Part shown: positions 14,844 to 64,000 of the stretch, piece by piece | How positions within the stretch are numbered: position 1 is the stretch's first letter | How the letters are laid out: every line of letters starts with the position of its first letter | From: Azolla caroliniana | Lineage: Eukaryota > Plantae > Polypodiophyta | Direction of reading: 5' to 3' | Length of the DNA stretch: 64,000 bases | Assembly (NCBI GenBank): GCA_043228905.1 | Contig: JBHGNT010000123.1 | Location: 9,731-73,730 of the forward strand | The notes under the pieces: generated by a model | The model's database searches: none | Seen by the model: the letters and a program-made list of their open reading frames with translations, nothing else | What the model was told of the DNA's origin: nothing | Position numbers and translations under genes: made by a program

Positions 14844-17800
14844 TGTCGTGAAGATTTTCGTCCATAGGTGGAAACCGGGGTGGGAAGGGCAAGTCGGTGG
14901 TGTGCTACATGTGCACATGTAAACTAGGATATGGTGTATAGAAAGAGAGGGGAAATTTTATCCCACATTGTAAGGTCCCTCCCTCCTTGGGCTATAAAAG
15001 GAAGGGAGGGGTCACTTATGAGGGGTTTGCCTAATTTTGAGTGTGAGTGAGGTATACCACTTAGTCTAGGGTCCTCCTTCTTCCCATTTCGTTTTAGGGT
15101 TAGGGTTCGCTTAGGGTTTTCTTCTTGGGTTTCCCTTTAGGGTTTTTGATATAGTCGTTTGGTGCGGCCATGGCGGCCACCATTGTTGTAATCATTCACT
15201 TGTTTTTAATATAGCTTGTTGTGGATCTTGCTTCCATCTATTTCGGTCTATGCTTATGTGCTACTCTTCATCTTCTCATCCGGTGTTAAGCTACCACTTC
15301 TCATATCTTATTCCTTCTCCTCTACTCCCTAGTCCAAGACCCCCGTGGTCCCGCCCCTTCTACACGCACGCGCGTAACAACGCGACATCTTTGGTGAACC
15401 CGACGTGAAGGGCGGCAAGGGAGCATGGAGATGGAAGAAGACTTCGACTTCGAGGAGATGATGGCAAAGATCGTGATGGAAGTTGGACGGAAGATGGCGA
15501 AGCGAGATGCGGCTCAACAAGCCGTTGAAAGGGTGGTCGATCGAGTCGACCGGTTTGATGGGAATGAGGTCCTAAAAATTTTGGGAGCCTACAAGGCCGA
15601 GATGGCGAAAGGGGGTGTAGACGAGGCGATGCGACTAGAGTATTTTCCCCGAGTGGCGGCCGTATCGATGCACAAGGAGGTCAAGGAGCTACGAGAAGCT
15701 CACGAGTCGTGGGTGTCCTTTGAGGGAGCCCTATTGGAGGCGTACGGGTACACAGAACTGGAAGGAAGAGGTCAACATGAGTTCGATCGGTGGGCGTGCA
15801 TACAATGCGATGAGAGGCGATCGGCCACAACGCGGCCCGCGAGCGGCGGAGAAGAGAGAGCGGCGACCGACTACGCACTATCGCCGGAAGAGAGCTCAAC
15901 GCAAATCGGTTCGGAGGAGCTCGACCTAGAGGTGCTAATACGGGAGGCATGCGAACTTGTGAAGGCGAAAATCGGAGCCGAAGAAGGGCTTGTTATGGAG
16001 TTGGGCCGGAGGCGATCGGAGGATGCGGACGAAGAAGCCTCCCTAGACGTAGAAGACGGGGCCTATACGGAGGCCGAAAGAGCGTACGACGGCAACATGG
16101 GAGAGGGTGCGGAGCAAGCGACCCTCTTGCCTTGCGATGAAGGGACGGCCATGGAGGCCGGTAACTATGGATTCGGGACATGGCGGCCCAAAACATCAAG
16201 CAGGAAGGCGAGTGGCCGAAACGACGACGAAGGGGAGGCGGCAAGCATGATTGAAGCTTGCATAATCGGAGGCAGGTTAGCCACGGACAACGACGTCCGA
16301 ACGGAGGCGGCTACGGACACAACGAGCGGCGGTGCCGTGACCTTACACACACCGACCCTAGAGGTTCCGGCGGTCGGCCCGAGTGCCGGCATGAGACCTA
16401 GAGCGATGGACAGTGGTGGTGGCAAGGCGGGTTACCACGACGACGAAGAGAACGAGGAAGAGATAGCCATGGACCACGGCGTCCGAACGAAGGTGGCTAC
16501 GAACATGGCATCGGCGAATAACGGTACCGGGACTTTTCCCACACCTATTCTAGAGACTTCGGCGGTCGGCCCCGAGAGCCCACGTGAGACCGGAGAGACG
16601 GAAGGTGGCGGCGGCAAAGCGGACGATCGAAACGACGACGAGGAAGGTCATAGCAGACGGAGGCAAGACGTCTCGACACCAAGACTGGAGACTACAGCGG
16701 TTGTGCTCGAATGCCAACATAAGACCAGAGAGAAGGGCGGTGGCCGTGAGGAGGCGTGGCCCGGAGTGAAAACGTACGAAGATGAGGATGCGAGGCCCGG
16801 AACGGGCATATACGAGAGGACCGATGGAGAGGTCGGGAACGGCAACGAGGAGAGAGTCGAGAACCGACCCGACCGGAAGATGAACCGGTTGATAATCCGA
16901 CACGACTGGAAGACGACGTGGAAGAAGATTGGAGCGGGGTCCGGTCAACCGGGCCCGAACTGAAGAAGAGCCGGCAAGGCCGGATTTGTTCGGACAAACA
17001 TGTACCGGCCGGTTACGATCACGGAAGGGAGCCGACCAAACCGGAACTCGATCGGCCGAGACCGATCCGGGCGAAGGCTAAGTCGGCATGATTGGAGGTT
17101 GAGGCGATCGGGCCACAACACTCGGTGGGAGCCGGTGAGCACGAGAAAGAGGCCAAGCATGCACAACGAGTACGGATCGGTGAGAGGCCGAGAGCAAGAG
17201 GGACCCTCCCCGCCTATTCTAGAGACTTCGGCGGTTGCGGATCAACATAAGACTGAAGAGACGACGGGTGGCGGCGAGGAGTTGGAGACTGGAATGGACG
17301 AGGCTACCAGAACGGGTACCCGGTGCGTGAAGACGTATGAGCACGGCCAAGATGGCAAGCCGGAGTCGGAAGGGGCTACGGCAAAGAAGGACGAAGAGAC
17401 CGACGTGGAGGTCGGGTTTACGACGAGTGAGGCGCGTAATACGAAGTACGCACTACGGCGTAAAACGGAGCATGCACTACGGCCGACGAAGGGCCAAGAA
17501 GCAAGCATGCACCCGGAAGAGCGGCAACGAGTGACCGGCAACGGCGGACCGGTCGAGCCTTTGAGAGGCAAGCATGCGGCGAGAGACGAAGCCGTAAGGT
17601 GCCGAGATCGGCGGATGGGTGACGAGAGCGAAGGATGATGCGCGGAGAACAATGGGGTACACACTGGGAAGAGAAAATGTGGCGGCTTCCCGGAGGGCAT
17701 ACAAGGCCAAGCGGGCCAAGAGGGCGTAAGTCGAGGCGAGGCGGTAACGGGAGTCGCGAAGGACACTGACATGGTGGTCGGGATGACGGTACGCTCTACG

Positions 17801-18954
17801 GCGAGAGAGCACGGTGAGCAAAGGAGAAACGAGGAGCGCGTAATGAGGTCGCCGAGGGACCAAAGAACGAGTGCATGTTCGGGAGACTACAAGGGCACAC
17901 GGAAAGAGCCTACGGAAGGTGAAAACGGAACGGAGGGAATCGGCACGAGGTGTTCGAGACGAAGAGAGGATCGAGCCGGAGATAGAACACAAGCGGTACG
18001 CAAGGGGCGGAATCCGGCGAGCAAACGGGGTGACCGAGGGCCTAATCGGAGGACCTACGTGGCGGACAAAGAAAGAGTGACCGGATCGGCAATGGCGTTC
18101 GGGAGAACCGACCGGGGAGGAAGGCGAACGCGGTGGATATGGCAGTTCGGATGGAATCGATGTTTCGGGGACACACGGTGGACGTGGTGGATCGGTTGGA
18201 GCCGTCGGCTCGAGGACGTGCGACAGATACGGTGGAACGGGGTGCTACGATGGTTCGTGTGGAAGGGATGGGCGTGCTCGAAATGGAAAACGAAGCCGAG
18301 CAAGGCCAACGAGGACACGACGGACCTCGGTTTTATCACCATGGCCGAAAAATCTCATCTCTTCTCCTTTCTTGGCACATACCAGTGGATGTGCGGTTTG
18401 GTGGGGGCGGATATCGTGAAGATTTTCATCCATAGGCGGAAACCGGGGTGGGAAGGGCAAGTCGGTGGTGTGCTACATGTGCACATGTAAACTAGGATAT
18501 GGTGTATAGAAAGAGAGGGGAAATTTTATCCCACATTGTAAGGTCCCTCCCTCCTTGGGCTATAAAAGGAAGGGAGGGGTCACTTATGAGGGGTTGCCTA
18601 ATTTTGAGTGTGAGTGAGGTATACCACTTAGTCTAGGGTCCTCCTTCTTCCCATTTCGTTTTAGGGTTAGGGTTCGCTTAGGGTTTTCTTCTTGGGTTTC
18701 CCTTTAGGGTTTTTGATATAGTCGTTTGGTGCGGCCATGGCGGCCACCATTGTTGTAATCATTCACTTGTTTTTAATATAGCTTGTTGTGGATCTTGCTT
18801 CCATCTATTTCGGTCTATGCTTATGTGCTACTCTTCATCTTCTCATCCGGTGTTAAGCTACCACTTCTCATATCTTATTCCTTCTCCTCTACTCCCTAGT
18901 CCAAGATCCCCGTGGTCCCGCCCCTTCTACATGCACGCGCGTAACAACGCGACA
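14844..18954 (+). mobile_element. Element B: non-autonomous Gag-only LTR element
   Basis: LTRs 14844-15387 and 18412-18954, TSD CCGG, tRNA-Trp PBS 15392-15409, same PPT as A. No PR, RT or IN. Confidence 0.96.
15425..18490 (+). pseudogene. Element B ORF: Gag N-terminus + repeat tail + W/R-rich end, with in-frame stops
   Basis: ORFs starting 15425, 17000 and 17771 share one frame. The N-terminus RFDGNEV..Y..EM..RLEYFPRVA aligns with Gag of A and C. Confidence 0.85.
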
Positions 18955-21900: not shown

Positions 21901-24900
21901 CCGCCTCCACGGCTCCGTTGATTTCCTCTCCAGGGCCGAGGATACCACATGCCCGAAGTCGCTCCTCCGCCCTTCTCTTCTTCCGGCCAACGACGTCGAC
22001 TACCGTACACCCTCCGTTGTCGGAGAAGCAAAATTTCCTACCTATAGTACAAGTCTTCTTCGCTATCGTACACTTGTGGGGTTTTCCCGGAGTGTCCGGA
22101 CTATCGCGGCCCCACGCCTTGATAACCCTCTCTAACTCTCGGCTTTCGCCCCCGAGGGTCTCGCGGTTCCGCTCATGGTTCGGTCTCACCGTCAGGAACT
22201 GGACCAAGTGGCGCCCATCCTGGCCCTTGACCCTTGCATAGGCCGAGCCGTTGTCCAACACCTTGGTCTCCATCCATGCTGCCGTGATGTACGGTTCTCC
22301 TAGTATAACCGGATGTGAGGACGTCTCCTGCACGAAGAAGTGCTGGTCAATCTTGACATCGCCGATCTTTACTCGTACATTCGGGCAAGCTCCATGCAGT
22401 TCTTCAGTGGCACGTGTCGCTGCCCGTATTTTCCACCCGTGCTTGGTGTTGATCGGCCATTTCCCCTTCTTGTAGAAGTCCATGGACATCAAATTGATTT
22501 CAGAACCGTGGTCCACCAACGCCACCACCAGTTCATGAACATCCCCGATCTTCACGGGGGTCTCCATGGTCGCTCTGGCCCAGTGCGGCCTCGAATAGTG
22601 GCTCTCCGCCAACTCGTCTTCTAGCGCCATGTCCTTTATGTGCGTCGTCCGCACCTCCACCGACTTCTCCGGTTCCGTCTCCGTCGACAGCCTCTTCCTC
22701 TTCACCAAGTCTACGATGGAGTCGTGGAACTCCTTCTTGGCGATCCCGAGCACTTCCCTCAGCGACAGTTCCACCTTGCTGTCGAGGACTCGCTCTTCCA
22801 GGACCTTTCGTAGGTCCGTGGATCTTTCGATTTCTGTGCCCAGCCAGTACCCGCTCTTCTTGGGATTATCCTGGGCGCCGGTTACGCCGGCCTCATTCCG
22901 CCTTTGCCCGAATCGGGTTTCATATCATTGCGAGGGCCCGGCCCCTTCGGTTTTCCCTACCCGCTTGTCCTCCACCAGAGCCTCGTAGTTTTGACAAGCG
23001 GCTTCGACGAAGCCTGTCTTTTCTTCCACCGGGTCACTCCACCCGGTTACCTCCCGGACCCGTTTTTCTGCGCGGTCTGCCTCTTCTTTCCTTAGTCGTG
23101 CGCCGGCGAGGCCTTCTAGCATCGTTGGCCAGAACCCGGCTTTGTTCGTCTTCGGGGCCTCGCCACCTCCGACCCGAATACCAGCCGACACCGAATAGTG
23201 GACGGTCTCCACGTGACGAGCCGCCGCCTCCTCCATCAGCCTTTTCATACCTCCTCGTCCGACGTTCAGGTCCAGGGGCCTTTGGGTCTCGCTGGCGTGC
23301 ACCCGACCGTTCCATAGGTACACCACTTTGCTTCTCATCGCCTCGGAGAAGTCCCCGCAGTCCTTCCGGATGTGGCCAACCGCGTCACACCACATGCACC
23401 TGTTTCCAGCCAGGGGTCGTCGGTCATGGGCCTGTTCGCCATCGTCCCTCCGTGCCTGGGCGATCTGGAGATCTTTTACCATCCGCGTCAGTTCCTCCAG
23501 AGCTGCTCCCCCGGGCGAGCCCTTGACCATGCAGGTCGAAGCCGATCCGGTCTCGAGCCAATCTCGGGTCTCTTCCCTTCGCGTTGGTGGTGTTGGCTCG
23601 AGCTTCCTTGCTGCGACAGAGCCCGCCCCTATCGATCCTTTGTCAACCCATTCCCGCCGTTTGTCTAAACGGCCACAGACCCTCTTCACCACGGCCTAGT
23701 CGGCCGTCAGCCTGACATCAGTCTCCAATAGGAGGCCTACTTGCTCCCGATCCCGCTCATCAACTGACTTAACAAACAATAGGACACGACTTGTGTCCAG
23801 AATGGTCCGGTCAAGCACCGAGAGGCGCGCGAAGCTTTCCTCAAACTCCCGGAGGAGCACCGACACGTTCCTTCCTTTGTCGGGGGTCTCCACCCACTCC
23901 ATGAAGTCCCGCTTCGAAAGTCGAAGCGCATCTTCAAGCCCGTATTTTTCAAGGAGCCGACCTTCGAACTCCTCCCAGGTCCGGCTCTCGGCCCGTACCT
24001 CGAGCACCTCCGTATGGATGCCTGGCATCGCCACTCGAGGGAATCCGGCTAGACGCCTCTCTTCTGGAATGTCCCTCATTACCATCTCAGCCCGGTAGGA
24101 CGCCAAGTAGCTCGTGGCATCCTTCCCACTAAACCGGCCAATCGTACCGACAACCGCCTCGATAGCCCTATCAAGGGCGCCGGTGCCTTCGCGCGCGCTC
24201 ACTATACGGTCCACAGCCGAAGCCATGGCATCTGCAAGGTCCGACCCCCTCATCTTCTACTCTACCCCCAGTTCACGTCGGGTTCACCAAATAGATGTCG
24301 TGTTGTTACGCGCGTTGTCGTGAAGAAAACCGTCCATAGGCGGAATCGGCGCACCAAGGCGTGGGAACCGGTTCTTCACGCGCGCACGCTCCAAGTTGTA
24401 CATAGAAGCGAATTGGGAGGATAATCGGCAGGAACGGGCCCTAACTCAAGTGGAGACAAAGACCGCGCGAACAGTCTTTTCGGTCGCGCGCGCGAACTGT
24501 ACGAGTCGGCGGCGTAACTACGCGGATGCGTGAAAAACGGAGCGGATCCCTGTCCAAAAGGGACAGGGAATAAAGCTGACACGACGGCCTGCTCGTCGGC
24601 CTATATAAGGAGCGGGAAAGAGCTGTTGCAGGGATCTCGCGGGGAGAGGACGAAGTGCTGTCGGACCGTTTCTGGACGCTTCTCTCTCTCTGTTTCCTTC
24701 CTTCCTGAGCTCCATAGCTTTTCTGTGCAGGGTTCCGAGGAGGCTCGCGCTGTTTCGAGGAACGCCCGAGTGCTTCCGGCAGCCCCTTTGAGCGTCGAAG
24801 TGAACAGGCGTCGGCATCTGTTCGCCGGCCTGTTCGGTTGTAACCAACCTGTGCCCCATCGAGGGTTGTAGTAGTGTTAGCCATTTTCTTAATATACATA

Positions 24901-25131
24901 TTAAGTCATTCGCATCTGTCTGTGTCAGTGTCTGTTCGCGTTCTCTGTGCTGAAGGGCCGTGTCCCTGTGTATCCCCGGTCCTCCGTAGCCGGTTCTCTC
25001 TCTCTTTCTCCTCCCTCGCTTGCTCTTTGGTTCGAGACCCCCGCGGTCCCGCCTCGATTCCACACGCACTTGCGTAATATCTCGACATATTTGGTGAACC
25101 CGACGTGAAAGAGGCGGCAGAAGAGCAGAAG

Positions 25132-27258
25132 ATGAGGGGGTCGGATCTCGCAGAGGCCATGGCTTCGGCCGTGGATCGGATTGTAAACGCGCGCGAGAGC
25201 ACCGGTGCCCTCGACAGAGCTATTGAGGCGGTCGTCGGCACGATCGGCCGGTTCGATGGGAAGGATGCCACGAAGTATTTGGCGTCCTACGGTGCAGAGA
25301 TGCTGATGCGGGACATTCCGGAAGAAAGGCGTCTTGCCGGATTTCCCCGAGTGGCGATGCCGAGCATCCATGCGGAGGTGCTCGAGGTGCGGACGGAGAG
25401 CCGTACCTGGGAGGAGTTCGAAGGTCGGCTCCTAGAGAAATACGGGCTGGACGACGCGCTCCGGCTTTCGAAGCGAAGGTTCATGGAATGGGTGGAGTCC
25501 CCGGGGAAGGGAAGAAACGCGTCGGCGCTCCTCCGGGAGTTCGAGGAAAACTTTGCGCGCCTTTCGGCGCTCGACCGAACCATCCTGGACACGAGCCGGG
25601 TCTTGCTGTTTGTCAAGTCGGTCGACGAGCGGGATCGGGAGCAAGTGGGCCTCTTGCTGGAAACCGAAGACGGGCTCACTACCGACTGGGCGGCTGTCAG
25701 GAAGGTCTGTGGCCGTTTCGACAAACGGCGAGAATGGGCGGATAACGGGGCGACCGGGTCGGGCTCGGTCGCAGCAAGGAAGCTCGAACCAGCGCCACAG
25801 GTGCGCAAGGAAGAGACCCGGGAGTGGTTGGAAACCGGTTCGGCTTCGACCGGCGTAGTCAGAGGCTCATCCGGAGGAGCGGCGCTGGAGGAATTGACGA
25901 AGGCGATAAAGGACCTCCAAATCGCGCAGGCCCGAAGGGAAGGGGGCGAACCGGCTCGTGACCGACGGCCGGCGGCAGGAAACAGGTGCATGTGGTGCGA
26001 TGAAGTCGGCCACATTCGGAAGGACTGCGGCGACTTCGCGGAGGCGCTGAGGGACAGGGTGGTGTACCTGTGGGAAGGACGGGTGCATGCCAGCGACACC
26101 CGAAGGGCCCTGAGCCGAAACGACGGAAAAGGTGGTATGAAAAGGTTGATGGAAGAGGCGGCGGCCCGACACGCGGAAACCGTCCACTACTCGGCGTCGG
26201 CCGGCATTCGAGTCGGGGGCGGCGAGGCCCGAAGGGAAAGCAAAGCCGGATTCTGGCCGACGATGCTGGAAGGCCTTGCCGGTGCAAGGCTTAAAGGGGA
26301 GGAATCGGACCGTGCGGAGAAACGGGTACGGGAGATGACCGGGTGGAGCGACCCGGTCGAGGAACGGACGGGCTTCGTGGAAGCTGCTTGCCAGAACTAC
26401 GAGGCTCTGGTAGAAGAGAAGCGGGTGGGGAAACCCGGGACGACCGGGCCCTCCCAACGATACGAGACCCGGTCCGGGCCACGACGGGACGAAGCCGGCG
26501 GGGCCGGCACGCAAGATAAACCCCAGAAGGGCGGGTACCGTCTGGGGACGGAGATAGAAAGGACCACGGACTTACGAAAGGTCCTGGAGGAACGGATCCT
26601 CGACAGCAAGGTGGAGCTGTCGTTACGAGAGGTGCTGGGAATCGCCAAGAAGGAGTTCCACGACTCCATCGTGGACTTGGTGAAACGGAAGAGGCTGTCG
26701 ACGGAGACAGAACCGGAAAGACCGGTGGAAGTGCGGACGACGCACCTAGACGACATGGCGCTGGGAGACGAGTGGGCGGAAAGCCACTATTCGAGACCAC
26801 ACTGGGCCCGAGCGACCACGGAAACCCCGGTGAAGATCGGCGATGTCCAGGAACCGGTGATAGCTTTGGTGGACCACGGATCGGAGATCAATTTGATGTC
26901 CATGGACTTCTATAAGAAGGGCAAATGGCCGATCAACACCAAGCACGGGTGGAAAATAAGGGCAGCAACGCGCGCCACCGAGGAACTGCACGGGGCCTGT
27001 CCGAATGTGCGAGTCAAGATTGGCGACGTCGAGATTGACCAGCACTTCTTCGTGCAGGAGACGTCTTCGCACCCGGTCATTCTGGGAGAGCCGTACATCA
27101 CGACGGCGCGAATGGAGACCAAAGTGCTGGACAATGGTTCGGCCTACGCGAGGGTCAAAAGCCAAGACGGGCGCCATTCGGTCCAGTTTCTGACGGTACG
27201 GCCGAACCACGAACGTAACCGCGATTCCCTCGGTTCCGAAAACCGAGAGGATTTTTAG
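25132..27258 (+). CDS. gag: Element C Gag-protease
   Basis: Open frame with CCHC knuckle CMWCDEVGHIRKDC and aspartic protease LVDHGSEINL. Ends at GGATTTT TAG. Confidence 0.92.
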   Translation: MRGSDLAEAMASAVDRIVNARESTGALDRAIEAVVGTIGRFDGKDATKYLASYGAEMLMRDIPEERRLAGFPRVAMPSIHAEVLEVRTESRTWEEFEGRLLEKYGLDDALRLSKRRFMEWVESPGKGRNASALLREFEENFARLSALDRTILDTSRVLLFVKSVDERDREQVGLLLETEDGLTTDWAAVRKVCGRFDKRREWADNGATGSGSVAARKLEPAPQVRKEETREWLETGSASTGVVRGSSGGAALEELTKAIKDLQIAQARREGGEPARDRRPAAGNRCMWCDEVGHIRKDCGDFAEALRDRVVYLWEGRVHASDTRRALSRNDGKGGMKRLMEEAAARHAETVHYSASAGIRVGGGEARRESKAGFWPTMLEGLAGARLKGEESDRAEKRVREMTGWSDPVEERTGFVEAACQNYEALVEEKRVGKPGTTGPSQRYETRSGPRRDEAGGAGTQDKPQKGGYRLGTEIERTTDLRKVLEERILDSKVELSLREVLGIAKKEFHDSIVDLVKRKRLSTETEPERPVEVRTTHLDDMALGDEWAESHYSRPHWARATTETPVKIGDVQEPVIALVDHGSEINLMSMDFYKKGKWPINTKHGWKIRAATRATEELHGACPNVRVKIGDVEIDQHFFVQETSSHPVILGEPYITTARMETKVLDNGSAYARVKSQDGRHSVQFLTVRPNHERNRDSLGSENREDF

Positions 27259-27315
27259 AGAGGACTGCCAAGGCGTGGGGCCGCGACAGTCCGGATGCTC
27301 CGGAAAAACCCCACA
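27249..27315 (+). promoter_or_regulatory. -1 ribosomal frameshift signal (G_GAU_UUU + 6-nt spacer + H-type pseudoknot)
   Basis: Stem 1 GGACTG/CAGTCC; loop GTGGGG can pair with downstream CCCCAC. The same architecture with covariation is present in F and A. Confidence 0.85.
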
Positions 27316-30300: not shown

Positions 30301-30737
30301 AGATGAGCCGGGAGGAGTTGTTGGCCGCGCGCATACGACAGCTCGAGCGGAGACCGGAGGACGTGGAACTGGCTGCGGAGAAGCTCCGGGTGGCGAGGAT
30401 AAAGAACAAAGCCAGGTTCGGCCGAACGCACCGGCTCCGACCGAAGAAAATCGAAGAAGGTGACTGGGTGCTCGTCTACGACAGCAGCCTCGACAACCAG
30501 CACCGAGCTACACGGAAGTTCGCACGAAGGTGGTTCGGGCCTTACGTGGTACGGAGCGCCAATGACAACGGGACATATCACCTGGCGGAACTCGACGGCA
30601 CGAGAATGGCGATACCGGTTGCAGGGAAGCGGATCAAAGCGTTCAAGAAGCGACACGACGACGAGCCAGACCCGGCTCTCCTGGTCAGCAGTGACGAACG
30701 ATCCGACAACGAGGAAGAACCGACGGGCGAGGAATGA
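27255..30737 (+). pseudogene. pol: Element C Pol (RT-RNase H-integrase) in the -1 frame, one premature stop at 28980-28982
   Basis: RT motifs DLYSGYDQF, LPQG, FLDD; RNase H VDTSP; IN H-H-C-C, DDE and GPY. No chromodomain. The single TGA corresponds to an Arg codon in A. Confidence 0.93.
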
Positions 30738-31129
30738 AGACGGGCCGGTTTTCTCCGTCCCAACTCTCTTGGCGCATACCGGAGGATGCGCGGTTAGGTG
30801 GGGGCGGATGTCGTGAAGAAAACCGTCCATAGGCGGAATCGGCGCACCAAGGCGTGGGAACCGGTTCTTCACGCGCACACGCTCCAAGTTGTACATAGAA
30901 GCGAATTGGGAGGATAATCGGCAGGAACGGGCCCTAACTCAAGTGGAGACAAAGACCGCGCGAACAGTCTTTTCGGTCGCGCGCGCGAACTGTACGAGTC
31001 GGCGGCGTTGTCGTGACGATTTTCGGCTACGGTGTGAAACCGAGTGAGATGAATAAACCAAGGATGTGCAACATTGCACATGCACTTAGCAAATAAACCT
31101 AGCCTAGTGGCACTTGAGTTCATACAGAG

Positions 31130-31200
31130 GGGTGCAAGCAAGGATTGAACCTTGCACCTCTAACATACAAGATAATTGCCTTACCACTAGGACAACTATC
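31130..31200 (-). other. tRNA-like A-box/B-box cassette in the D LTR (also ~33768-33838)
   Basis: Minus strand reads gtcctagtggtaaggc...gaggtgcaaggttcaatccttgc. Confidence 0.7.
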
Positions 31201-31696
31201 ATATAGTGTAGATTATATGTATTTCCTTTTCATATACAAATTATAGACGAAACAACCATAGAAAACCATGTGCACAAAACCATGGTTTTAAACCCATGGT
31301 TTGTGCATGACATAAGCAAAACCGTGTGCACAAAACCATGGTTTTAGCCCATGGTTTTGTGCATGTCACGAGCATGGAAAGACCTATAAAAGCCTCTAGT
31401 TGGGCTTGTGTAAGGGGGGCTCAATATGTGATATCACCAACACCACTATCATCAATATAATTATATTTGTCTTTATCTTCTTCATGTTTTTCTACTTCTC
31501 AAGTGTACAATTTTTCTCCTTCTCAAGTAAACCAATTTCATCTAATCTTACATTGATCGTCATCTAGCATCGATAATTCTGCGAACGTCCTCCCCAGTCC
31601 AAGACCCCGGTGGTCGCTCGAGTAGCACACGCACGCGCGAATCTTCGCGACATCATTTGGTGAACCCGACGTGAAGAGCAGCAGGGGAGGACGAAG

Positions 31697-44418: not shown

Positions 44419-44448
44419 TTTCTGTGTCGTTTCACTCTGATACCACTT

Positions 44449-49078: not shown

Positions 49079-49460
49079 GTATGGAATACATCATATACAT
49101 TTATTATTTCTTATAGTTTTTTAAAACTATGTAAGTGCAATTTCTTCTGGTTACATAGGTATTGGTTGTGGAATCTAAGTTGAACCTAGAAATGTATCCT
49201 AGAAAAGGCACTCCCAAGATTGTTAACTTGCTACATCACTTCTAGGCTCTTTGTTTTTGACATGTATCTACACCCTCCACAACTTTACCTTTCAGATTAA
49301 TATGCCATATCTCAATTGGTCCTGCCAAACATATAATTGCCTAGGTTTGAATTATCTACATATTTCCATAAGTTCACCTTTTGGATGTAATATGTATATG
49401 TTGAGTGGTTCTTTTACACATGAAATTGCTTGAAGGATAATTATAATCACTATAAAACCT

Positions 49461-52400: not shown

Positions 52401-55394
52401 TTCAAACTTTTGTAATTCACATGCATTCGCCATGTTCCATCCTTCTTCTTGGCTAAGATGACAGGAGCTCCCCATGGCGATTTACTGTACCGGATGTGTC
52501 CCATCCTCAAGTATTCCTTGATTTGTCGGGCAATTTCATCCTCTTCGGTTCAACTCAACCGATATGGGGTTATGCTCACAGGTTTAGCGCATGGAACCAA
52601 GTTTATCTTATGATCTATAGGCCGAGAAGGAGGTAGTCCTTGAGGTAACTTATCCGGGAATATCTCCTTAAAATTCAACAAGATGTCACGTAGAGCATCT
52701 TTCTCAAAATTGTCCAATGAACTCTTATCTACAAATTGATACGGAGGATCATTGGGCTCTAATATACATGCATAAAATTGTGCATCGACGTTTTGATCAT
52801 AAGCATAAAGATGATTAACAGACATTAAATTGTTTATCACAATCCCATGAATAAAAACTTGTTGGTTGTTATTTCCTTCAAAAGAAATAGTATGATTTGG
52901 CAAATCGATATAAAGACTATGTCTATTATAAAACCATATGTAACGAAGAACTACATCTACCGTTCGTAAATGCATTACATGAAAAGTCAACTTTTCAATG
53001 TAGTTATTTATTATTAGGGGTACACCATGTGCAATTAATGAATGCCTTTGGACATGGCCTCCCGCAATAAGGACTTTGTAGTCGGGGTCACTTTTGGTTG
53101 TTTTTATTCGTAATATCTGAACCATATTAGAGTCAAGAAAATTATGAGTGCTACCATAGTCAAATAGTATAGTTACACTTTGATTGTGGATAGTCCCATA
53201 AGTTTTAAGTAAATCGTGTGGTCCGAGAATATTTTTTTGTAATGCAATAGAACTAACGGAATTCAAATAATTCAAGAACATACTTGGATTATTGGAAGTT
53301 GATGGCTTTCTTTGCAGATTGTTGGAGTTACCACTCTTCTTTCTCCACCTACACTCGTTGGCTTTATGCCCAAGCTTCTTACAAAAGTTGCAGATTATTA
53401 CCCGTCTTTTCGCATTGTCGCCTTGACCTATCAGAGAAGGTTGGTATCTACGTTTGTCGCTTTCTCCTTCTGACTCTTTTAGTTGGTAACGAGGTTTTGT
53501 GTCAAACAGAATGCGGGCACGTTCCATCGCTTCTCCCAAGGTCTTGGGTTGATGAGTATGGATCTTATAATGAAAATCTTTATTATGAAAACTATTAATA
53601 TATAATCCTATCTATATTTCCTCATTAGATGCCGACAAAAGTCCATGCTTTGTTATTAACTTGAGGAAATACTGATTGAATTGGTCAATAGTCCTGCCCT
53701 TATCTGACAAGTGACACATATCTTGTATCACTTAAGAAGTTGTCTTGGAACGGACAAATTCCATCCTGAGAGTCTTTTCAAATGCCTCCCACGTTCCTGG
53801 TTTTCTATCCAACCGCTCCCACCATGAGTTTGCAGCACCGATCATCTCATGAACCGCCATATCGATCTTTATAGAGACATTCTCAATATTCTCGAGGCGA
53901 AAGTGAGCATTCCATCGGTTTATCCAACTGCTCACAAACTCGTGGTTGCATTGCTTATCCCTTCCTGAGAACTATTGAGGAGTAAATGAAGCTTTCTTCG
54001 TATTGCTTGATGTGGAAGCATGTGCCTTTAACTCCAAAATTTGTTGTTGAAGGTTTTCATTTCAAATTGATGCCTATTGGCATCAAGAAGCCCTTCAAGT
54101 TTGGAGGAAAACGCAGTTGTGACCATTGTCATTGACTTGACAATATCATCTTGCATTTTGCGGAAATCATCCCTCGTGACAAATTTGATATCATCGTTAA
54201 TATCCTTGTCACGAACCGGAGATATTGGTCGGTTGTCCTCATCTCGTATAGGAGAAATTGGATGACCTTGACGGGTGGGAGATGTGGGATGTGTCGAAAA
54301 ACTATGATGATTGGGAGATGTGTGATGTGCGGAATTACGAGAGGAGGAAAGAAATAAGGAGAATTGAGAGAGGAAAGAAATAAGTATACTAAAGTCTAAA
54401 GTACTAAAGTGTATTATAAAAGACTTTAGGATTTAGATGAGTAACTGAAGAGTGATAGATAATGAGAGAGTGGGAATACTTATATACCCAATTTTCTTAA
54501 GTCGGCGAGTAAAAAACATTCCCCCTAGATATATCCAATTTAGGCATTTATCCCTTTTTTATCTATAGGAATTTAAAAAACATTCCCCCTAGATATGTCC
54601 AATTTAGGCATTTATCCCTTTTTTATCTATAGGAATTTCTAAATTAGACATTAGGAGCAATACCTTCCCTTTTAAGAAGTCGGTGAGTACTAGTCGGTGA
54701 CCAACTCTCTAAGGTTACTTTCTTGAATGCTTCCAAACTAGGAAATTCTCCTTTTTTAGTTATGAAAATTTTCTAGTTTAGATTTTAGAGATAAACATCC
54801 CCTTTTTGGAAGTCAGTGGGGATAGTAGGCAACTTCCTTGAGAATCACTATAGTCTGTACTAACCAAAAGATGATGATGATCATCCAAATAATGATGATC
54901 TCTTCACTCATCATCCCAATATTCCTCTTGAGAATCATTGTACTAACAAAATAGTGATGATGGTCATCCCAATAATGATGATCTATTCACTCATCATAGC
55001 CTTATTCCTCCCATCCATCTCATACTCATGATCCCTCTCAACATTGATTTCTTCTCTTATCTCTCTCCTTCGTATCGATTGATAAATGATGATGATCTTA
55101 TCCATATAATTATATTATCATCCTTTTAATCAACTGTATAATCATCCCTATAATCCACCCATTAACGTTAATGATCTATGGAGAGCTTCGTCTGAACCAC
55201 TCATGGGGTCCCCCTTAACCAAGGAGAGTCTCCCCAATTTATAGGACCTAGGCCATGTAATGACATCTACCTGACCAATCATGTGCGGGGTACCCTATGA
55301 CACACATTAGGTCAGTCCAATAAAGTCGACGACTTAGATATTACAGTATGATAGCCCCCTAATAAGCACGTCTAAACCAATTCAGAACATTACA
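49461..55394 (-). mobile_element. Old chromovirus-type Ty3/gypsy element (gag, PR, RT, RH, IN, chromodomain), decayed; boundaries approximate
   Basis: CNFCKKLGHKANEC, SPWGAPVIL, VETDASDYAIG, SISMDFIVGLP, IVSDRD, HPIFHMS and chromodomain PEKILDHR..YNVKWK..NTWE. TGTAATG/CATTACA ends, but no matching TSD or clear LTR pair. Confidence 0.88.
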
Positions 55395-57130: not shown

Positions 57131-57200
57131 GGCAAGTAAAGATTCAAACCTTGCACCTCCAAGTTAAGAGTCAATTGGCTTACCATTAAGCCATGCCATT
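57131..57200 (-). other. tRNA-like A-box/B-box cassette in the F LTR
   Basis: Minus strand reads tggcttaatggtaagcc...gaggtgcaaggtttgaatcttt. Confidence 0.65.
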
Positions 57201-60200
57201 TAGTTGAATTTATATTTCTATCATTGTACTTTTATGTGTAAATTCTCATACATGAGAGCTAAAATGAGTGACATGGTTATCATGCACCACATGTAATACA
57301 TAAGCGCCAAATGGCAAGCATGCATTTTATGCATGTCTTGTACCCTTACATGCATCATATGCATGAGAGCATCTATAAAAGAAGGGGGAGGAAAAAAAAC
57401 GCGTTTTTTTTTGTTATGAAATTAAGAGGAAGAAATTCGTTATCAAATTGATCGTGTAACTTGTTTCTTAAATCCAAAGATAAAAGTTCAATCAATCTCT
57501 CTCAATCGTTTAATCTCAAATTGTCTCTTTCCCAATCTATCCTAAGTACTTTCTCGCCAAAGCTTGCGCCAAAGCTTGTACCGACTTTGAATCCTTCCGG
57601 TTCAGAACCCCGGCGGTTCTGCCTCACGATCCGCGCGTAGTGACGGATCTTCATGACATAATTAAGTGGTGAACCCGACGTGAAAGAGGCGGTAGGAAGG
57701 ATCAAGTCAAGATTAATACTTGGAGATGGCGTCCTCAAGCAACCAAGCGGGAGAGCTCGAAAGGATGATGTTAATCGTCGAGCAAATGATGAGATCTCGG
57801 GACAACGACGCGAGCGTGGAGAAGGCTGTCGATCGTGTCGTAGAGCTCGAGGGCCAATTCGATGGAAGGAATGTTACGAAGTTCCTTGATGCATATAGAA
57901 GGGAGATGAATCAGAGGGACGTGTCCGAGGCACGTCAAATCGTAAGCTTCAAGAGAGTTGTCGCCAACAACATCCAAATACGCGTCATCGAGCTTCAAGA
58001 AGGTAAGACAACATGGTTCGAGTTCGAGAAAACGATACTAGCGGAGTTTGTGACTGAAGACTCAACGAGGATGACTCGACATGCCCTGATGAAGTGGATA
58101 GAGAAGAAGAATAAGAAGATGAGCATCTCGAGGGTGTACGACGAATTTGACCAGATGTTTAGTCGTCTCCCCAATACGGACCAAGTGTTGCTTGAAGAGG
58201 ATAAGACTTTGTACTTCTTGAAGGCCGTGGACACAAAGGATAGACGGGAGTTGGGGACTCTTCTCGAAGATGATACCCAAGCAAATGGGCTCGTAGCGGA
58301 CTGGATCGCGGTGAAGTGGGCATGCAATAGGCTCGACAAGCGTCGCCAATGGGTTGATGACATCGACTTGACGGGATCGACTACCACGGAGAAAGCAAGA
58401 CCGCCGAAAGTAGCTGAGCCGCCAAGTCAAAGTAACATGGAAGAAAAGAAGATTGATGACGACATCATTGAAGAGCTAGCGAAGAAGTTCGAGAAGGTCA
58501 CGCTAGCCAACATGAATCGTTGGGGCCCTAAAGGAAAAGAACCCTTTAGATGCGTGTGGTGCGATAGCATGGACCACATGAGAAGGGATTGTGCGAGCCT
58601 TCGAGAGGCGATTCGACAAAATATCGTATACATAGAGGACAACATGATCTGCTCAAGCGAGACTAGAAGACCCCTACGGGTGAATTTCGGAAGAGGAGGA
58701 ATGAAGAAATCTATGGAGGATGCCGATGCGACTCATGTGGATGCGATGCACTATGCTGCGTCGGCCGGAATAAGAGTCGGGAAAGACAAGACAGAAGCTG
58801 CTAGAGCGGGAGCAAAGTTTTGGACTTCCGTTCTCGAATATGAGAAGAAGGGAAAAGTCACATCGAACGAGGTAGAGCTTGCGGACCGAAGCGTGCAAAG
58901 CATAACCGGGTGGTCGGATCCGGTGGATGACAACACCATACTCGCAGAGGTGATGTGCGACAACCACGAGGTGTTCGTCGAAGAAAAGAGAAAGAGAATA
59001 GAAGAGCAAGGCCCATAAAAAAGATATGAAACAAGGAACGCGAAAAAGAAGGACGATGCGGAGACGAGTCGACCTTTACAAACGGAGGAACGAGAATCAA
59101 GCCGAAAAGGGGAGCCGAGCATACGAGTTGAAGAAACGGTTCGGCCCGTGAAGGTTGGTGTCGAAGACCCCGCTTGGAGGACAAGGACTATACCTACCTA
59201 TAAGCTAAGGTCGGACATAGAGCAGATGACGGACCTAAAGAAGATTCTCGAAGAACGAGTTCTTGATAGCCACGTAACTTTGTCCTTGAGGGAATTGCTT
59301 GGCATTACGAAGAAGGAGTTCCATGACACGATTGTGGACCTTGTAAAGAGAAAGAGACAACAATCGGATGAGGAAGAAGAGAAGCAGCAAAAAGAAAAAA
59401 CGAATGCCATAACGATGGCAAGAGACGAAGTCGATGAAGATATGGTGGACATCCACTATACTCGACCTCATTGGGCACGAGCGACAACGGAGACGCCGGT
59501 GAAGATCGGGGAGAAGAAAGAGACCGTGGTAGCCTTGATCGACCACGGCTCGGAGATCAACCTCATGTCAACCAACTTCTACAAAAAAGGAAGATGGCCA
59601 ATCAATACAAACCACGGATGGAATATTCGCGCGGCAACAAAGTCTACGGAGGACTTGTACGGAGCTTGTCCCAATATCAAAGTCACAATCGGGGATGTGG
59701 AGATGGATCAACACTTCTTCGTACAAGAATCGACGTTGCATCCTGTCATCCTAGGGCAACCTTATATCACATCATCTCGGATGGAGACCAAAGTGTTCGA
59801 TAATGGATCAGCCTTCACACGAATAAAGAGTCTTGACAACCAAAGATTGGTCCAATTCCTAACGGTGCGAGCCAATCATGAAAGGAATCGAGATAGTCTC
59901 GGAGGTGAATCCTTGGATTTTTAGAGCGGACTATTGAAGCATGGGGTACAAATAGTCTGAGCAATCACAAGACCCCACAAGAAAGAAGAGTGTGTGGATT
60001 GCGAGGAGAAGCAACATGTGTCACACCTAGTGGCGCATGTAAACTAGTACTACCCGACAAGAAGCACAAGCACCGGATACAAGAATTCGAGAAGATGCTG
60101 AAAGAAGAAAACATAATAGAAGAAGGAGAGTTCGTGACTCATATTATGGAAGAAACCTCATTTAACGACACCATCGGTGAAATCGAGGACGTCGTGGACT

Positions 60201-61644
60201 TGAGCTATCTTCACAACCAATGCGTGATTTCGGTTAACTCCGTCAACATGTACGCTATCATCGATGAATACCGTCGTGGCATCTCGATGAAGGAAGCTGA
60301 CATCAACATGAAATATAAAACGGTGGATAAGAAGATCAAGCCAGTTGCGGTTCCGCTACCAGAAGATAGCTGGCAAAAGATGAAGGAAGTCGCTAACGAT
60401 CCAAGCTTAAGAGATCCGAAGAAGATAGACATGTCTTCACCAAAGAGACGAAGGGGAAGCTACGAGTTGGAAAGGAGGATTTCCTTCTCCCTGAAGAGGA
60501 GCGAATGTTTCGTGATATGCTTGAGAGACATGGGAAGGCTTTCGCATTCTTCCCATGAGAAATCGGATGCACCGACCCAAAGGTTATAGAGCCGATGGTG
60601 ATCTTCACGGTGCCTCATGTGCCTTGGAATTTGAAACCGATATCGGTTCCGAGAGCACACCTTCCGAAGTTGATCGAGCTCTTAAAGGAGAAGGTGAGTA
60701 TCGGAATTCTAGAACCGTCGAATGCTCCTTATTCCAATAGGTGGTTCATGGTGCAGAAGAAGAATGGATCATTGCAATTCATCCAAGATCTTCAACCCGT
60801 CAACAAGGTGACAATTCGAAATGCCGGAATCGGTCCGAGCATGGACGAATTTGCCGAAGCGTTTGCGGTACTCCGGATATGACCAATTCCAATTGGCGAT
60901 CGACAGTCGGGACATTACAACCATGAGGACTCCGATCGAACTTGTGCGGATGTGTACCTTACCCCAAGGCGCAACGAACTCGGTGGCTCATATGGTGAAT
61001 GCCATGAATAAAGTCTTGAAGGATTGCATCCCAGACATCACGATGCCATTCTTGGATGATATTCCGATAAAAGGATGTTCGGATGAGGAGAAAGATGAAT
61101 CAAAAGATAAGGAAGGTTGTAGAAAGTTCGTTGCGGATCATATGAAAGATTGCGAGAAGGTGCTTCAAAGGCTCGAAGATGCGAATTTGACATTTTCGGG
61201 AGAAAAATCCGCATTCGGGCAACCGGAGATCTTGGTGGTAGGTCACTTGTGTGGAGCATACGGCCGGAATCCCTCGCCATCCAAAGTGAATGCAATCCAA
61301 GACATGAAAGAAGAATGCGAAAACCAAACGGAGGTTCGAAGGTTCCTTGGAGCGTGCGTGTTTTATCATATATGGATTCCTCACTACGCTCATGTCGCCG
61401 AACCGTTATATGGACTACTAAAGAAAAGAATGAAGTTCGAATGGCGAGATGAGCACACAAATGCGATGCGAAGATTAAAGAAACTGCTTCTTGAAGCTCC
61501 GGCAGTAAGTAAGGCCAACTATACCAAAGGGAAACCAATTTACGTTGTCGTAGTGTATTTTGTACACTACGTGAAAAACGTATATAGTATTAGATTCAAT
61601 AAAAAATGAAGAAATAGAAGAAAATAGCAAAATAAATGGAACAT

Positions 61645-61712
61645 GCATAGGGCAAGATTCGAACCTTGCACCTCCTTGTTAATAATGTAATGTCTTACCA
61701 TTACACTAGCAT
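61645..61712 (-). other. tRNA-like A-box/B-box cassette in the G LTR
   Basis: Minus strand reads tagtgtaatggtaagac...gaggtgcaaggttcgaatcttgc. Confidence 0.7.
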
Positions 61713-62339
61713 TTCATTAGTGTTAAAGCATAGATGTCCCACATAGAAAGGTAAATTCACGCTAGGATAAACATTAGAAAAACGCATAACAAAAGAAAAA
61801 GCTACACATACACATCTAGCGTACATGATAAAAAACGCACAAGTTAGAAAAAAGCATGATCACTTTAGATAAAGCATATAGTCTATCTATAGGAAAAGCA
61901 TGGGGTCTATAGTTAGAGAAAAAGCATGGATTACTAAGACTTACTCATCACTACATAAGGATGGGGAGCACAATGTAATAGTGTGTGAAATATTTGGAAA
62001 TTGGATATATTTCCGAAAACACCAACCGATTAATATAATCGTGGGATTCACGAAAATAATATAATCTATACTTGTGGGATTCACAAGTTTCTTATATCTT
62101 TCTTTCAATCTAAATAAATATTCTTATCTAAATATTGATTAATCGAATACAATACACTCGTGGGATTCACGAGATTTCTATCTCTCTTTCTAATAATCTA
62201 TTCATTACTAGCCTCATCTCATATTCTTCTTTCTCCTAGTCCAAAACCTCGGCGGTTCCCACCCGACTCACGCAAACGATCCGGAGCCGAAAGGCACGAC
62301 ACAGTTGGTGAACCCGACGTGAAGGCGGGTGGCAAGGAG

Positions 62340-64000
62340 ATGGAGAATCAACAAGAGGCAATGAGCAAAACGATGATGATGATGTTCGAGCGGATGCTAC
62401 AAGAACAACGAGTGATGTCGGAGATCACGGGGGCAGTAAAGCGGCTCGTACAACGAAACGGACAATTCAACGGAAACGATGTGTCACGCTATCTACGTGA
62501 CTACAAGGCGGAGATGATACGATGTGGGATACCGGAAGGATTGCAAGTGACATCCTTCAATCGGGTGGCCACGGATGAGCTACAAGAGAGAATCCACAAG
62601 ATACGGCAACAAAACTCGACATGGGGGTCATTCGAAGAAGCTTTACGAGAGGCATATGATTACAAGAGATCAAAGGGACAAGATCGGCGAAAATTCGACG
62701 AATGGGTGGCATCGGAGAAGACCCACCGAAGTGCAACACAAGCATTCCTAGAGTTCGAGCATCGTCTTGCTCAACTCTCGGAGCGGGAACAACGATTGGT
62801 GGGGGAGGATAAAGTCCTAATGTTCGTAAAATCGATCGATCGAAAAGAAAGGATGGACATCGGGATCGAACTCGAAGACGATGACGGTACGAATGGTCTT
62901 ACCGAAAATTGGGCCGAAGTCCAAAGGGTATGCCGGAGACATGATGAGAGGAAGATGAGAATCTTGTCAACGACATGGCCGATGAAGGATGGTCGATTGA
63001 AGACAAACGATGGAGCCGATATGAAGGCCGAAATACAACATGATGGTGCGACGGAAGAGGGTGTAAAACAAGCTACCCTCTTGTCTTGCGAAAGAACAAC
63101 GATGAAGGATAAGGCCGATAACCCAAGTGTAGAAGAAGATTTCAGAATACAAGTGTCCGAAACATTGGGTGAAAAAGGGGTAAGCATAATTGATGCAGTG
63201 AAAGAGAGCAAGGAGGACTTGATTAAGGAGGTAGCCACAAAAGACGAAATCGAATCGGAGGTGGCTATGGACGAATCAATGGCGGATTGCCATATCGAGA
63301 CTTCCCCACCACTGATTCCAGAGACTCCGGCGGTTGCGATCGAAAGGCAACGTGAGACCGAAGAGACGGAAGGTGGCGGAGAGAAAACGAATGTCGAAGC
63401 CGACGAATACGATGAAGAGATAGCCGAGAAGAATGCTAAGGGTGAAACTACGAAAGAAGGTAATACCGAGGATTCATGCCAACAATATCTAGAGACTTCG
63501 GCGGTTGTGTCCGAGAACCAACGTGAGACCGGAGAGACGGGAGATGGCGGCGAGGAAGGTAAAGTCGGAAGTCAGTTCGGATGGAAAATGATCCATCCGA
63601 AATTCCAATCTAAAAGAAAGTGCGACAATGCGGAGGTCGGGTCTACGACGGGAGAAGCGCGTAATACAGAGCACGCTCTACGGCGAATAAAGAAACACGT
63701 GTTATGGCAAATAAAGAAGCACGCGCTACGGCGAGAAAAGAAGCATGCATTACAACCACACGAGGACCGAACAACGAGCACATATCGGAGGACCTACGTG
63801 GCGAACAACGGAAAGAAGTGCCGAAAGTCGAACCGGACAAGGCAGGTGAAAACGAAGAAAAGAAAGCAAATCCGAACGAAAAGAAAAGAAAAGAAACCGA
63901 CCCGAAAGAGCACTGAATCGGTAAAAACCGATCAACCGAGTCCGGATCGACCGAATACAAATCGGAAAGGAAGCCGAACTAAACGAAAGACGATCCAACG
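62340..64000 (+). CDS. Element G ORF (Gag N-terminus + repeat tail), apparently open to the window end
   Basis: ATG at 62340, then FNGNDVSRYLRDYKAEM, EDKVLMFVKSID and ETPAV/ETSAV repeats. I translated both ends in the same frame; its absence from the ORF track fits there being no stop inside the window. Confidence 0.8.
   Translation, partial: MENQQEAMSKTMMMMFERMLQEQRVMSEITGAVKRLVQRNGQFNGNDVSRYLRDYKAEMIRCGIPEGLQVTSFNRVATDELQERIHKIRQQNSTWGSFEEALREAYDYKRSKGQDRRKFDEWVASEKTHRSATQAFLEFEHRLAQLSEREQRLVGEDKVLMFVKSIDRKERMDIGIELEDDDGTNGLTENWAEVQRVCRRHDERKMRILSTTWPMKDGRLKTNDGADMKAEIQHDGATEEGVKQATLLSCERTTMKDKADNPSVEEDFRIQVSETLGEKGVSIIDAVKESKEDLIKEVATKDEIESEVAMDESMADCHIETSPPLIPETPAVAIERQRETEETEGGGEKTNVEADEYDEEIAEKNAKGETTKEGNTEDSCQQYLETSAVVSENQRETGETGDGGEEGKVGSQFGWKMIHPKFQSKRKCDNAEVGSTTGEARNTEHALRRIKKHVLWQIKKHALRREKKHALQPHEDRTTSTYRRTYVANNGKKCRKSNRTRQVKTKKRKQIRTKRKEKKPTRKSTESVKTDQPSPDRPNTNRKGSRTKRKTIQ

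Follow-up and report, generated by a model that had tools for sequence, protein, structure and literature searches.

How non-autonomous LTR retrotransposons enter helper particles, and why TR-GAG elements retain a gag ORF, are open questions, and helper specificity is called poorly understood in the accessible text of PMC8704663. The window, a stretch of 64,000 nucleotides of Azolla caroliniana DNA, touches on both. Its non-autonomous elements carry an arrayed stem-loop motif, raising the question of what the motif does for them. The elements and their ORFs are:

14844 to 18954, forward strand: non-autonomous element B; LTRs 14844-15387 and 18412-18954 (538/543 identical), PBS 15392, TSD CCGG
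15398 to 18490, forward strand: ORF of B, two in-frame stops (three with the terminal stop)
31009 to 34290, forward strand: non-autonomous element D; LTRs 642/642 identical, PBS 31658, TSD GCGT
31664 to 33685, forward strand: ORF of D, 673 codons without a stop; capsid-like domain, then a low-complexity acidic linker containing the motifs, then a Trp-rich tail
37671 to 43344, forward strand: non-autonomous element E; LTRs 679/679 identical, PBS 38354, TSD ACGT
38371 to 42654, forward strand: ORF of E, one in-frame stop
61546 to 64000, forward strand: non-autonomous element G, inserted in F and extending beyond the window; PBS 62306; from about 62301 on, the ORF stays open as far as the window end
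13784 to 35525, reverse strand: autonomous-type element A, split by B and C; motif absent
24316 to 34866, forward strand: autonomous-type element C; zinc-knuckle gag, PR, RT, RH and IN, TSD GCGT, with D lying inside its 3′ LTR; motif absent
57667 to 61545, forward strand: autonomous-type element F, covering its PBS up to the site in pol at which G starts; motif absent

Two LTRs, PBS, PPT and TSD are complete in B, D and E; G leaves the window. B lies in the integrase of A, D in the 3′ LTR of C, and the identical LTRs of D and E indicate recent movement. Each of the four elements has one ORF, which encodes a Gag domain, and shows no Pfam pol domains, the organization that, together with LTRs, PBS, PPT and TSD, defines TR-GAG. 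The likeness extends to recent mobility and modular reshuffling between families, as described in the available portions of PMC8704663 and PMC13570524. Those portions describe no motif of this kind for TR-GAG, however, and gag here is capsid-only, without a zinc knuckle, and is followed by an acidic linker of 400-1200 aa, a Trp-rich tail and the arrayed RNA motif. Stops in the ORF frame number zero in eight of ten elements (one in E; three in B, including the terminal stop) versus 13-33 expected, and for each element 0 of 300 shuffles reached the observed openness. Several tails carry stops, and the elements are mosaics of segments exchanged between them.

A and C are compact, with the order RT-RH-IN and no chromodomain match; named RT relatives are from Riccia, Adiantum, Calypogeia and Olpidium. 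By the TSDs and the domain order of A and C, B, D, E and G appear to be Phygy-like Ty3/gypsy elements. The accessible sections of PMC6317226 present Phygy as a non-chromovirus Ty3/gypsy clade and call it specific to Physcomitrella; shared features are 4-bp NCGN TSDs (CCGG, GCGT, GCGT and ACGT in B, C, D and E), short elements, an interior filled by a polyprotein and the lack of a chromodomain match.

The motif occurs on the sense strand only, always within the long gag-derived ORF:

16358 to 17258, forward strand: array of four copies in B, cores 16358-16403, 16550-16595, 16685-16730 and 17219-17258
32579 to 32894, forward strand: array of three copies in D, cores 32579-32624, 32708-32753 and 32849-32894
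39469 to 41794, forward strand: array of nine copies in E, starting at 39469, 39706, 40024, 40255, 40534, 40762, 40894, 41290 and 41749
63318 to 63534, forward strand: array of two copies in G, cores 63318-63363 and 63489-63534

All 18 copies listed in the first-pass annotation are present, and every start it gave is exact to the base. Its consensus describes them poorly, matching exactly in just three of 18, and the enclosing ACCTTCC...GGAAGGT that it reported as frequent is found as an exact pair in none and with at most one mismatch per side in three. Elements carry one to nine copies, all within the long ORF that runs from capsid through acidic linker to Trp-rich tail, and 0.9-3.4 kb downstream of the PBS, that is, not in the leader. 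Long segments are common to B and E; the copies are paralogues and therefore do not represent 18 independent events.

A covariance model built from the 18 copies recovers exactly those in the window, all on the forward strand, at 78-104 bits, scores expected by construction because the model was trained on them; the next-best match has 14.6 bits. In independent DNA, 65 matches reach at least 44.8 bits among 67 rows, at 27 of 27 loci that had been picked beforehand by the motif pattern. A metagenome scan yielded 63 further full copies, and the distinct total is 72, with 54 from outside the window. The related loci all come from a single set of assemblies and may represent one host lineage. Viral contigs searched gave no motif match and no RT relative. 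An Rfam search, advised at first pass, found no family match: none of the Rfam 15 covariance models reached its gathering score in the window, or E ≤10 across 39000-42700 in element E. Nor is the motif listed in the literature surveyed, which lay mostly outside subscription journals and did not extend to the PMC6317226 supplements on Phygy.

The motif is thus an uncatalogued sequence, and it is predicted to form a bulged RNA hairpin. The predicted fold has two helices, P2 (6 bp) and P3 (4 bp), around a nearly invariant unpaired AGA (A in 72, G in 72 and A in 70 of 72 copies). The proposal that the hairpin covaries holds for this inner two-helix part, which passes tree-aware tests, so that its covariation is not lost once phylogeny is counted; the outer helix is not significant on the tree. 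When about 3,300 column pairs are ranked, first comes a pair predicted within P2, with states C-G 43, G-C 15 and A-U 1 of 72, for which two tree nulls give E values of 0.03 and 0.0; a pair predicted within P3 comes second. Under home-made nulls, with a tree drawn from the same 84 columns, core double changes number 6 versus 0.88 expected (p 0.001, 72 copies) and 3 versus 0.49 in the 54 non-window copies (p 0.012). Tested pair by pair, just one pair is significant, resting on about two branches, and single changes that retain pairing show no excess (0.45 versus a null of 0.41, p 0.2).

Pairing was also assessed by other routes. When 63 copies are aligned with MAFFT, 91.5% of cells are paired, a level reached by 0 of 500 shuffles, and slid controls give at most 53%. 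A separate protein search supplied 113 motif peptides, in which the P2 swap is read as Trp with Gln or Pro in 31 cases and as Ser, Pro, Thr or Ala with a G-starting codon in 54, and crossed combinations never occur. G-U cells exceed A-C cells in both the core (48 versus 27) and the outer helix (137 versus 11), which points to the sense strand. Folding energies are ordinary (most z from -2 to +2), and the probability of the P2 closing pair exceeds 0.5 in only 4 of 18 copies in a 180-nt context.

The suggestion that constraint acts at the nucleotide level was borne out by low synonymous divergence in the core and by copies in other frames. Across 52 copies, pS is 0.11 and 0.22 in the two core halves versus 0.46 in the loop and 0.47-0.63 in the flanks, and pN/pS is 1.6 in the 3′ core and 0.53 in the 5′ core. 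Four-fold sites are almost fixed (ACC 52/52, ACT 47/52), and Ser/Trp and Gly/Glu/Gln exchange freely within the motif peptide. Two signs noted at first pass apply to one half only. Third positions vary less than first positions in the 3′ half (0.95 versus 0.90) but not in the 5′ half (0.87 versus 0.95); similarly, the 3′ half shifts between two frames (8 versus 10 copies), but the 5′ half keeps one frame in 18/18 window copies. Across 64 copies, the 5′ half is in one frame in 60, and four are read wholly in another.

Selection on a repeated peptide, LETSAV...RETGET, would agree with the common frame of those 60 copies and with the pN/pS of the 5′ core. It is nevertheless extremely unlikely, given the nearly fixed four-fold sites, the freely swapping residues, the 3′ core ratio and the copies in other frames; moreover, copies share a frame because they were duplicated within an ORF required to stay open. 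The conserved entity is not the TPxLETSAV peptide: judged from divergence, constraint is on the nucleotides. Alternatively, the motif may have no function of its own, with tandem duplication and exchange between elements homogenizing the segment and hairpin-templated copying errors mimicking covariation. The copies are indeed paralogues in recombining elements, independent compensations are few and predicted folding is weak. However, divergence of the motif's internal loop is like that of the flanks, and that of the two core halves is not, a contrast that, on these sequence comparisons, largely refutes this very improbable reading; wobbles and unpaired purines are also kept, and uncompensated P2 intermediates are absent in 85 of 85 classifiable motif peptides.

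The distribution of the motif is the next line of evidence. As claimed, none is present in A, C or F, where covariance-model scores are at most 11 bits, and none was found in the autonomous part of L019. The motif is thus not equally common in autonomous copies across those examined, which comprise only two complete and two partial ones. With a relaxed structural descriptor, a copia element gave one match and A, C, F and the autonomous part of L019 gave none; the descriptor's sensitivity is limited, as it recovers only 10 of the 18 true copies. The motif peptide is present in 0 of 120 RT relatives, which says little because these proteins are without gag. The idea of an undescribed RNA element therefore stands in being nucleotide-level, sense-strand, structured, without an Rfam match and limited to the non-autonomous elements examined. 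It does not stand as a simple multimer of the helper's own signal, since A and C are without the motif.

The best reading, with a probability of roughly 0.45, is that the motif is a multimerized or multivalent protein-binding tag for capture of the RNA into helper particles. The hairpin would form in vivo, and a protein would bind its purine-rich bulges, either the zinc-knuckle nucleocapsid of the helper or the element's own Trp/Arg tail in place of its lost nucleocapsid. The parasite capsid domain would co-assemble with helper Gag, and parasite genomic RNA would enter particles built with the helper's enzymes. The available part of PMC8096270 describes purine loops as Gag-binding packaging sites in MMTV, and the motif resembles the MMTV purine loop with DIS: it too is a stem-loop on the sense strand whose purines are looped, and it faintly suggests a palindrome. 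Unlike retroviral packaging signals, it is multi-copy, deep in an ORF and absent from the autonomous genomes examined; a psi signal would be carried by the autonomous genome near its 5′ leader, and no copy of the motif lies in A, C, F or the L019 autonomous part. A possible pairing between the invariant loops and leader RNA, whether the helper's or the element's own, was considered and rejected: A, C, F, B and D did not consistently offer a complementary word. A likeness of the 3′ half to a PBS was also rejected, as its purines vary between G and A. A search for tRNA genes found none.

The hint of a palindrome raises the possibility of a dimerization or template-switching site, in which the self-complementary segment 5′ of P2 would pair two RNAs for co-packaging and mosaic exchange. 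A perfect 6-nt palindrome, mostly UCUAGA or UCCGGA, is present in 44 of 72 copies, self-dimer energy is -6.3 versus -5.3 for column shuffles (0/300), and the elements are mosaics. However, a tree null gives 5-7/200 in three overlapping windows of 38, which is not significant once corrected, the palindrome is missing in 28 of 72 copies, CpG decay could yield the same states and the invariant AGA is left unexplained, making this function improbable.

The structural evidence for a packaging tag would serve equally for a hairpin that binds a host factor to promote nuclear export, stability or translation of unspliced parasite RNA, the ORF staying open mainly to avoid nonsense-mediated decay. The ORF reaches almost to the 3′ LTR, and dN/dS in the linker (0.22-0.83) indicates little amino-acid constraint. 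This is the second most probable reading, though somewhat unlikely: autonomous RNAs also need export and stability yet are without the motif, selection at the protein level on the capsid and Trp tail is unexplained by decay avoidance alone and plants are not known to have NXF1. As outlined in the accessible text of PMC4330393, the MPMV constitutive transport element (CTE) has a helix between two similar purine-rich, AGA-containing loops, and the purine-rich ...AGA before both P2 strands is loosely reminiscent of this two-fold arrangement. However, the motif is much smaller, arrayed and in a plant, and the CTE's two-fold internal loops with AAGACA are not found in the 72 copies, just one of which has the loop word.

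Covarying stems about nearly invariant unpaired purines could also belong to a new small self-cleaving ribozyme, and ribozymes of 31-35 nt with simple internal loops are known from the available text of PMC11620745. This is very unlikely, because a genomic RNA efficiently cleaved at as many as nine internal sites on the sense strand would fall into pieces, and D and E moved recently intact. The Rfam results also count against it, as do the core words of the hammerhead, hairpin and twister, none of which occurs in more than 3 of the 72 copies, whichever strand is read. The accessible parts of PMC6765202 place retroelement ribozymes at ends or in LTRs. Retrozymes (PMC6765202, PMC4918200) likewise are parasites of the Ty3/gypsy type in plants, are non-autonomous and have a structured RNA and TSDs of 4 bp, but they have a hammerhead in each LTR and a non-coding interior; here the motif is internal and coding, no hammerhead is matched and the elements, of 3.3-5.7 kb, have a long selected ORF. 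Kink-turn, SECIS and box C/D geometries did not fit, with SECIS-like words in 7 of 72 copies.

A packaging tag would need a protein partner, and the ORF offers a candidate. The capsid-like domain of D (about 31697-32326) is two-lobed, with Z 11.0 to dArc1 by structure comparison (single lobes Z 8.3 and 7.8, rmsd 2.3-3.0). A Foldseek search with it gave no match at E ≤0.001, and an Atlas protein search gave only weak gag-like matches under recognition level. The D ORF has no zinc knuckle, protease, RT or integrase, and none of 149 motif-bearing proteins has a zinc knuckle or RT-like motif. Capsid dN/dS is 0.08-0.50 in 14 pairs, indicating purifying selection, and the tail is also constrained:

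33467 to 33530, forward strand: Trp/Arg-rich tail segment of the D ORF, under protein-level constraint

Similar tails lie at about 18140-18290 in B and 42380-42540 in E. Of 24 homologues found with the D protein, 23 have the motif peptide and the other is cut at the motif. The hairpin-plus-tail cassette is found behind several gag 5′ ends, drawn from two deep clades, and the capsid region of motif-bearing L015 is 91% identical to autonomous F. By these comparisons, the motif is part of a translated capsid-linker-Trp-tail cassette, overlooked in the first-pass annotation, that has moved between gag families. In one subfamily (L022, L027) the capsid N-lobe is lost and the C-lobe kept, recalling the capsid-derived Ty1 restriction factor p22, a truncated Gag able to interact with full Gag according to the available text of PMC4599808; here, by contrast, the truncated Gag is encoded by a separate amplifying element.

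A more elaborate and rather unlikely version makes the whole a portable hijacking cassette, a surrogate Gag (capsid, long acidic tether and Trp/Arg RNA-binding tip) with a private array of RNA tags. The parasite capsid would enter helper particles, bringing in tagged RNA only, and recombination would join the cassette to the LTR and capsid of any helper family active at the time; a retrotransposon parasite would then have evolved an orthogonal packaging pair. Because this RNA element is small, mutable and specific to the parasite, has compensatory variants in nature and comes with a candidate cognate peptide, it opens the question to direct testing. If tail and tag do pair, this would be a new mode of genomic RNA selection; if not, the motif would still be an uncatalogued structured RNA family of seed-free plant retrotransposons.

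Sequencing runs, all of them contigs, provide side observations. In X1 and X3, summed depth is highest at the motif; this depth is not a copy number. Low-depth contigs of X2 cover D, including the motif, but also non-genic DNA, and so are no sign of transcription per se. X2 is spliced across a host-gene intron. The neighbouring host gene has its best named matches in ferns, at 43-46%.

The arrayed stem-loop is a real motif and apparently an uncatalogued RNA one. All 18 positions listed in the first-pass annotation are confirmed in the window; a covariance model scores these training copies at 78-104 bits and the next-best window match at 14.6 bits, with no further copies found in its scan of the window. 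The exact ACCTTCC/GGAAGGT pair said often to enclose them accompanies none of the 18. Rfam gave no match, and no published description was found in the open literature searched. A pattern scan of metagenome contigs yielded 27 loci, all from a single assembly set, with 65 strong covariance-model matches in 67 rows. Exclusion of two weak rows and of two matches truncated at contig ends left 81 copies, 72 of them distinct. A profile search over 1.84 billion proteins returned 235 relatives.

In the predicted fold, a purine-rich YRGAGA precedes helix P2 (CUUCGG with CCGGAG), and an internal loop, CR opposite RURAGA, separates P2 from helix P3 (GUUG with CAAC), which is capped by a variable loop. 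R30 and U52 are able to pair in 96% of copies; this pairing would leave AGA, near-invariant at its three positions (A 72/72, G 72/72, A 70/72), as a three-base bulge.

Several lines of evidence support the core helices. When 63 of the 72 copies were aligned with MAFFT (the nine others had indels or short flanks), pairing was 91.5%, a level reached by 0/500 shuffles, and slid controls gave 26-53%. Under a tree null, double changes number 6 over the ten core pairs, where 0.88 would be expected (p 0.001), and pairing stands at 92%, compared with 86% (p 0.003); the 54 non-window copies show 3 double changes against 0.49 (p 0.012). Single changes in core pairs show no excess of kept pairing (p 0.2), and the outer helix of the first-pass annotation is not significant on the tree-aware test. 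When about 3,300 column pairs were tested under two home-made tree nulls, only the top-ranked, a P2 pair occurring as C-G, G-C and A-U, was significant (E 0.03 and 0.0); the second, in P3, was not (E 0.7-2.0). The G-C form is missing from the window copies and so confirms the P2 pair out of sample, albeit on about two branches. Of 113 distinct motif peptides from the protein search, 85 allow the P2 swap to be classified and none of these crosses it; a C-A mismatch is implied in 12 others, and the remaining 16 are ambiguous. A G-U excess in the sequences points to structure on the sense strand. Against structure count the mostly unremarkable folding z-scores and a P2 closing pair that dominates in only 4 of 18 sequence contexts, so that the modeled fold probably needs protein or non-canonical contacts. 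It is very unlikely that the motif is a product of neutral duplication.

Constraint falls on nucleotides. Across 52 standard copies, the two core halves have pS values of 0.22 and 0.11, the intervening loop 0.46 and the flanks 0.47 and 0.63, with a pN/pS of 1.6 in the 3' core. Of 64 copies in 23 elements whose reading frame was mapped, 52 follow the usual frame, eight have the 3' half alone shifted, and four, from two related elements, lie wholly in another frame. By these sequence measures the motif peptide is a by-product, and selection on the peptide itself is scarcely credible.

The ORF of the non-autonomous elements (B, D, E and G in the window) is under selection in its own right. A retroelement capsid with two lobes is predicted for its first 210 residues (pLDDT 86.5; Z 11.0 to dArc1), and the ORF has no zinc knuckle. 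With ORF ends defined by stops, eight of ten elements are free of stops past codon 230, where 13-33 would be expected; E has one, and B has two plus the terminal stop. All eight retrieved elements whose contig includes the gag start as well as the tail, four of them near-identical, keep a single frame from one to the other; the ORFs of loci L026 and L020 stop short. Transition bias uncorrected, dN/dS is 0.08-0.50 in the capsid against 0.22-0.83 in the rest, the low capsid values being partly inherited from autonomous ancestors. A subfamily (loci L022 and L027; proteins P0011, P0015, P0018, P0021 and P0023) has lost the capsid N-lobe and retains C-lobe, motif array and tail, reminiscent of capsid-derived restriction factors.

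The ORF ends in a Trp/Arg-rich tail, located as follows.

33467-33530, window: tail
about 18140-18290, window: tail
about 42380-42540, window: tail
L019:877, metagenome locus: tail
L022:1931, metagenome locus: tail
L027:250-277, metagenome locus: tail

It is constrained at the protein level, with synonymous sites free to vary and a pN/pS of 0.35 (12 sequences, several with stops). It is tandemly repeated in B and E, a second Trp-rich version lacks GW words, and tblastn found no match in the autonomous-type elements A, C or F. Candidate roles for the tail are those of RNA-binding tip, membrane anchor and Argonaute hook.

In a 13-row capsid tree, one deep clade consists purely of motif-bearers, namely four loci together with D, E and G. 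Within the other clade, motif-bearing L008, L013 and L015 cluster with autonomous F (100/99). The simplest reading of these sequences is that the cassette of hairpin array and tail moved onto an F-type 5' end, the direction being putative. The motif accompanies 23 of 24 D-protein homologues. Non-autonomous elements stand in tandem with each other at L016:155-5560, with another element at L015:3458, and immediately 5' of an autonomous gag-pol at L019:1-2400.

The non-autonomous elements share all TR-GAG features examined, as given in PMC8704663 and PMC13570524; the carriers are a new variant within a known type of element, and any function of the motif is putative. On the features examined, the motif does not belong with retrozymes, classical psi, known ribozyme classes or the CTE (PMC4330393). 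In twister-sister-like lantern ribozymes, loops of 5 and 6 nt cleave at CA (PMC11620745); the internal loop of the motif is unlike these, and a ribozyme is a highly improbable reading.

Lacking nucleocapsid, protease, RT and integrase, a non-autonomous element must use a helper particle; D and E would have entered one recently, since their LTRs are identical. The motif is a hairpin of the sense strand whose looped purines are invariant, occurs in up to nine copies and was seen in non-autonomous elements only; this fits a multivalent protein-binding tag, and MMTV Gag binds looped purines (PMC8096270). We tentatively propose, at a probability of roughly 45%, that the motif is such a tag, by which parasite RNA carrying several copies would be taken up into helper particles. 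Because the helpers lack the motif, the tag would have one of two partners: helper nucleocapsid, to which it would offer a new site of high affinity, or the tail encoded by the same element. Recognition by host factors, as an export, stability or translation element, is rather unlikely; a dimerisation site is more doubtful still; 44 of 72 copies carry a palindrome, with a signal that is not significant once corrected.

The window is plant DNA with nested LTR retrotransposons. A copia element (nest at 12343-45230) has A and E inserted in it; B and C lie in A, the 3' LTR of C contains D, and G lies in F, which is truncated within pol. A, on the minus strand, and C have the Ty3/gypsy gene order (gag, PR, RT, RH, IN), and neither gave a chromodomain match. 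One PBS word, which we take to be of tRNA-Trp type, is common to all seven elements A-G. NCGN target duplications, the hallmark of the Phygy clade (PMC6317226), flank B, C, D and E, and NCGN sites are used by those Phygy-type insertions that were checked. The Phygy placement comes from target duplication and domain order, two of the three features of that clade. Named RT relatives come from liverworts, one fern and one fungal record. Two neighbors lie outside this group.

7805-9496, minus strand: BAHD acyltransferase gene of two exons; its intron, at about 8770-9018, is spliced in sequencing run X2
49867-53611, minus strand: further, unrelated Ty3/gypsy element with RVP_2 protease and RT/RH, without the motif

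The best named matches of the BAHD gene, beside the nest, are ferns (43-46%), which makes a seed-free plant the probable host. C is inserted at the LTR-PBS junction of A and has a single in-frame stop at 28980-28982 between its RT and RH-IN ORFs. The copia LTRs contain 40-bp tandem repeats (12816-13021 and 44914-45162) whose copy number differs between them. The D LTR contains a strong inverted repeat (31262-31358 and 33900-33996; folding z -4.0 and -6.7), partly common to loci L005, L007, L011, L014 and L016.
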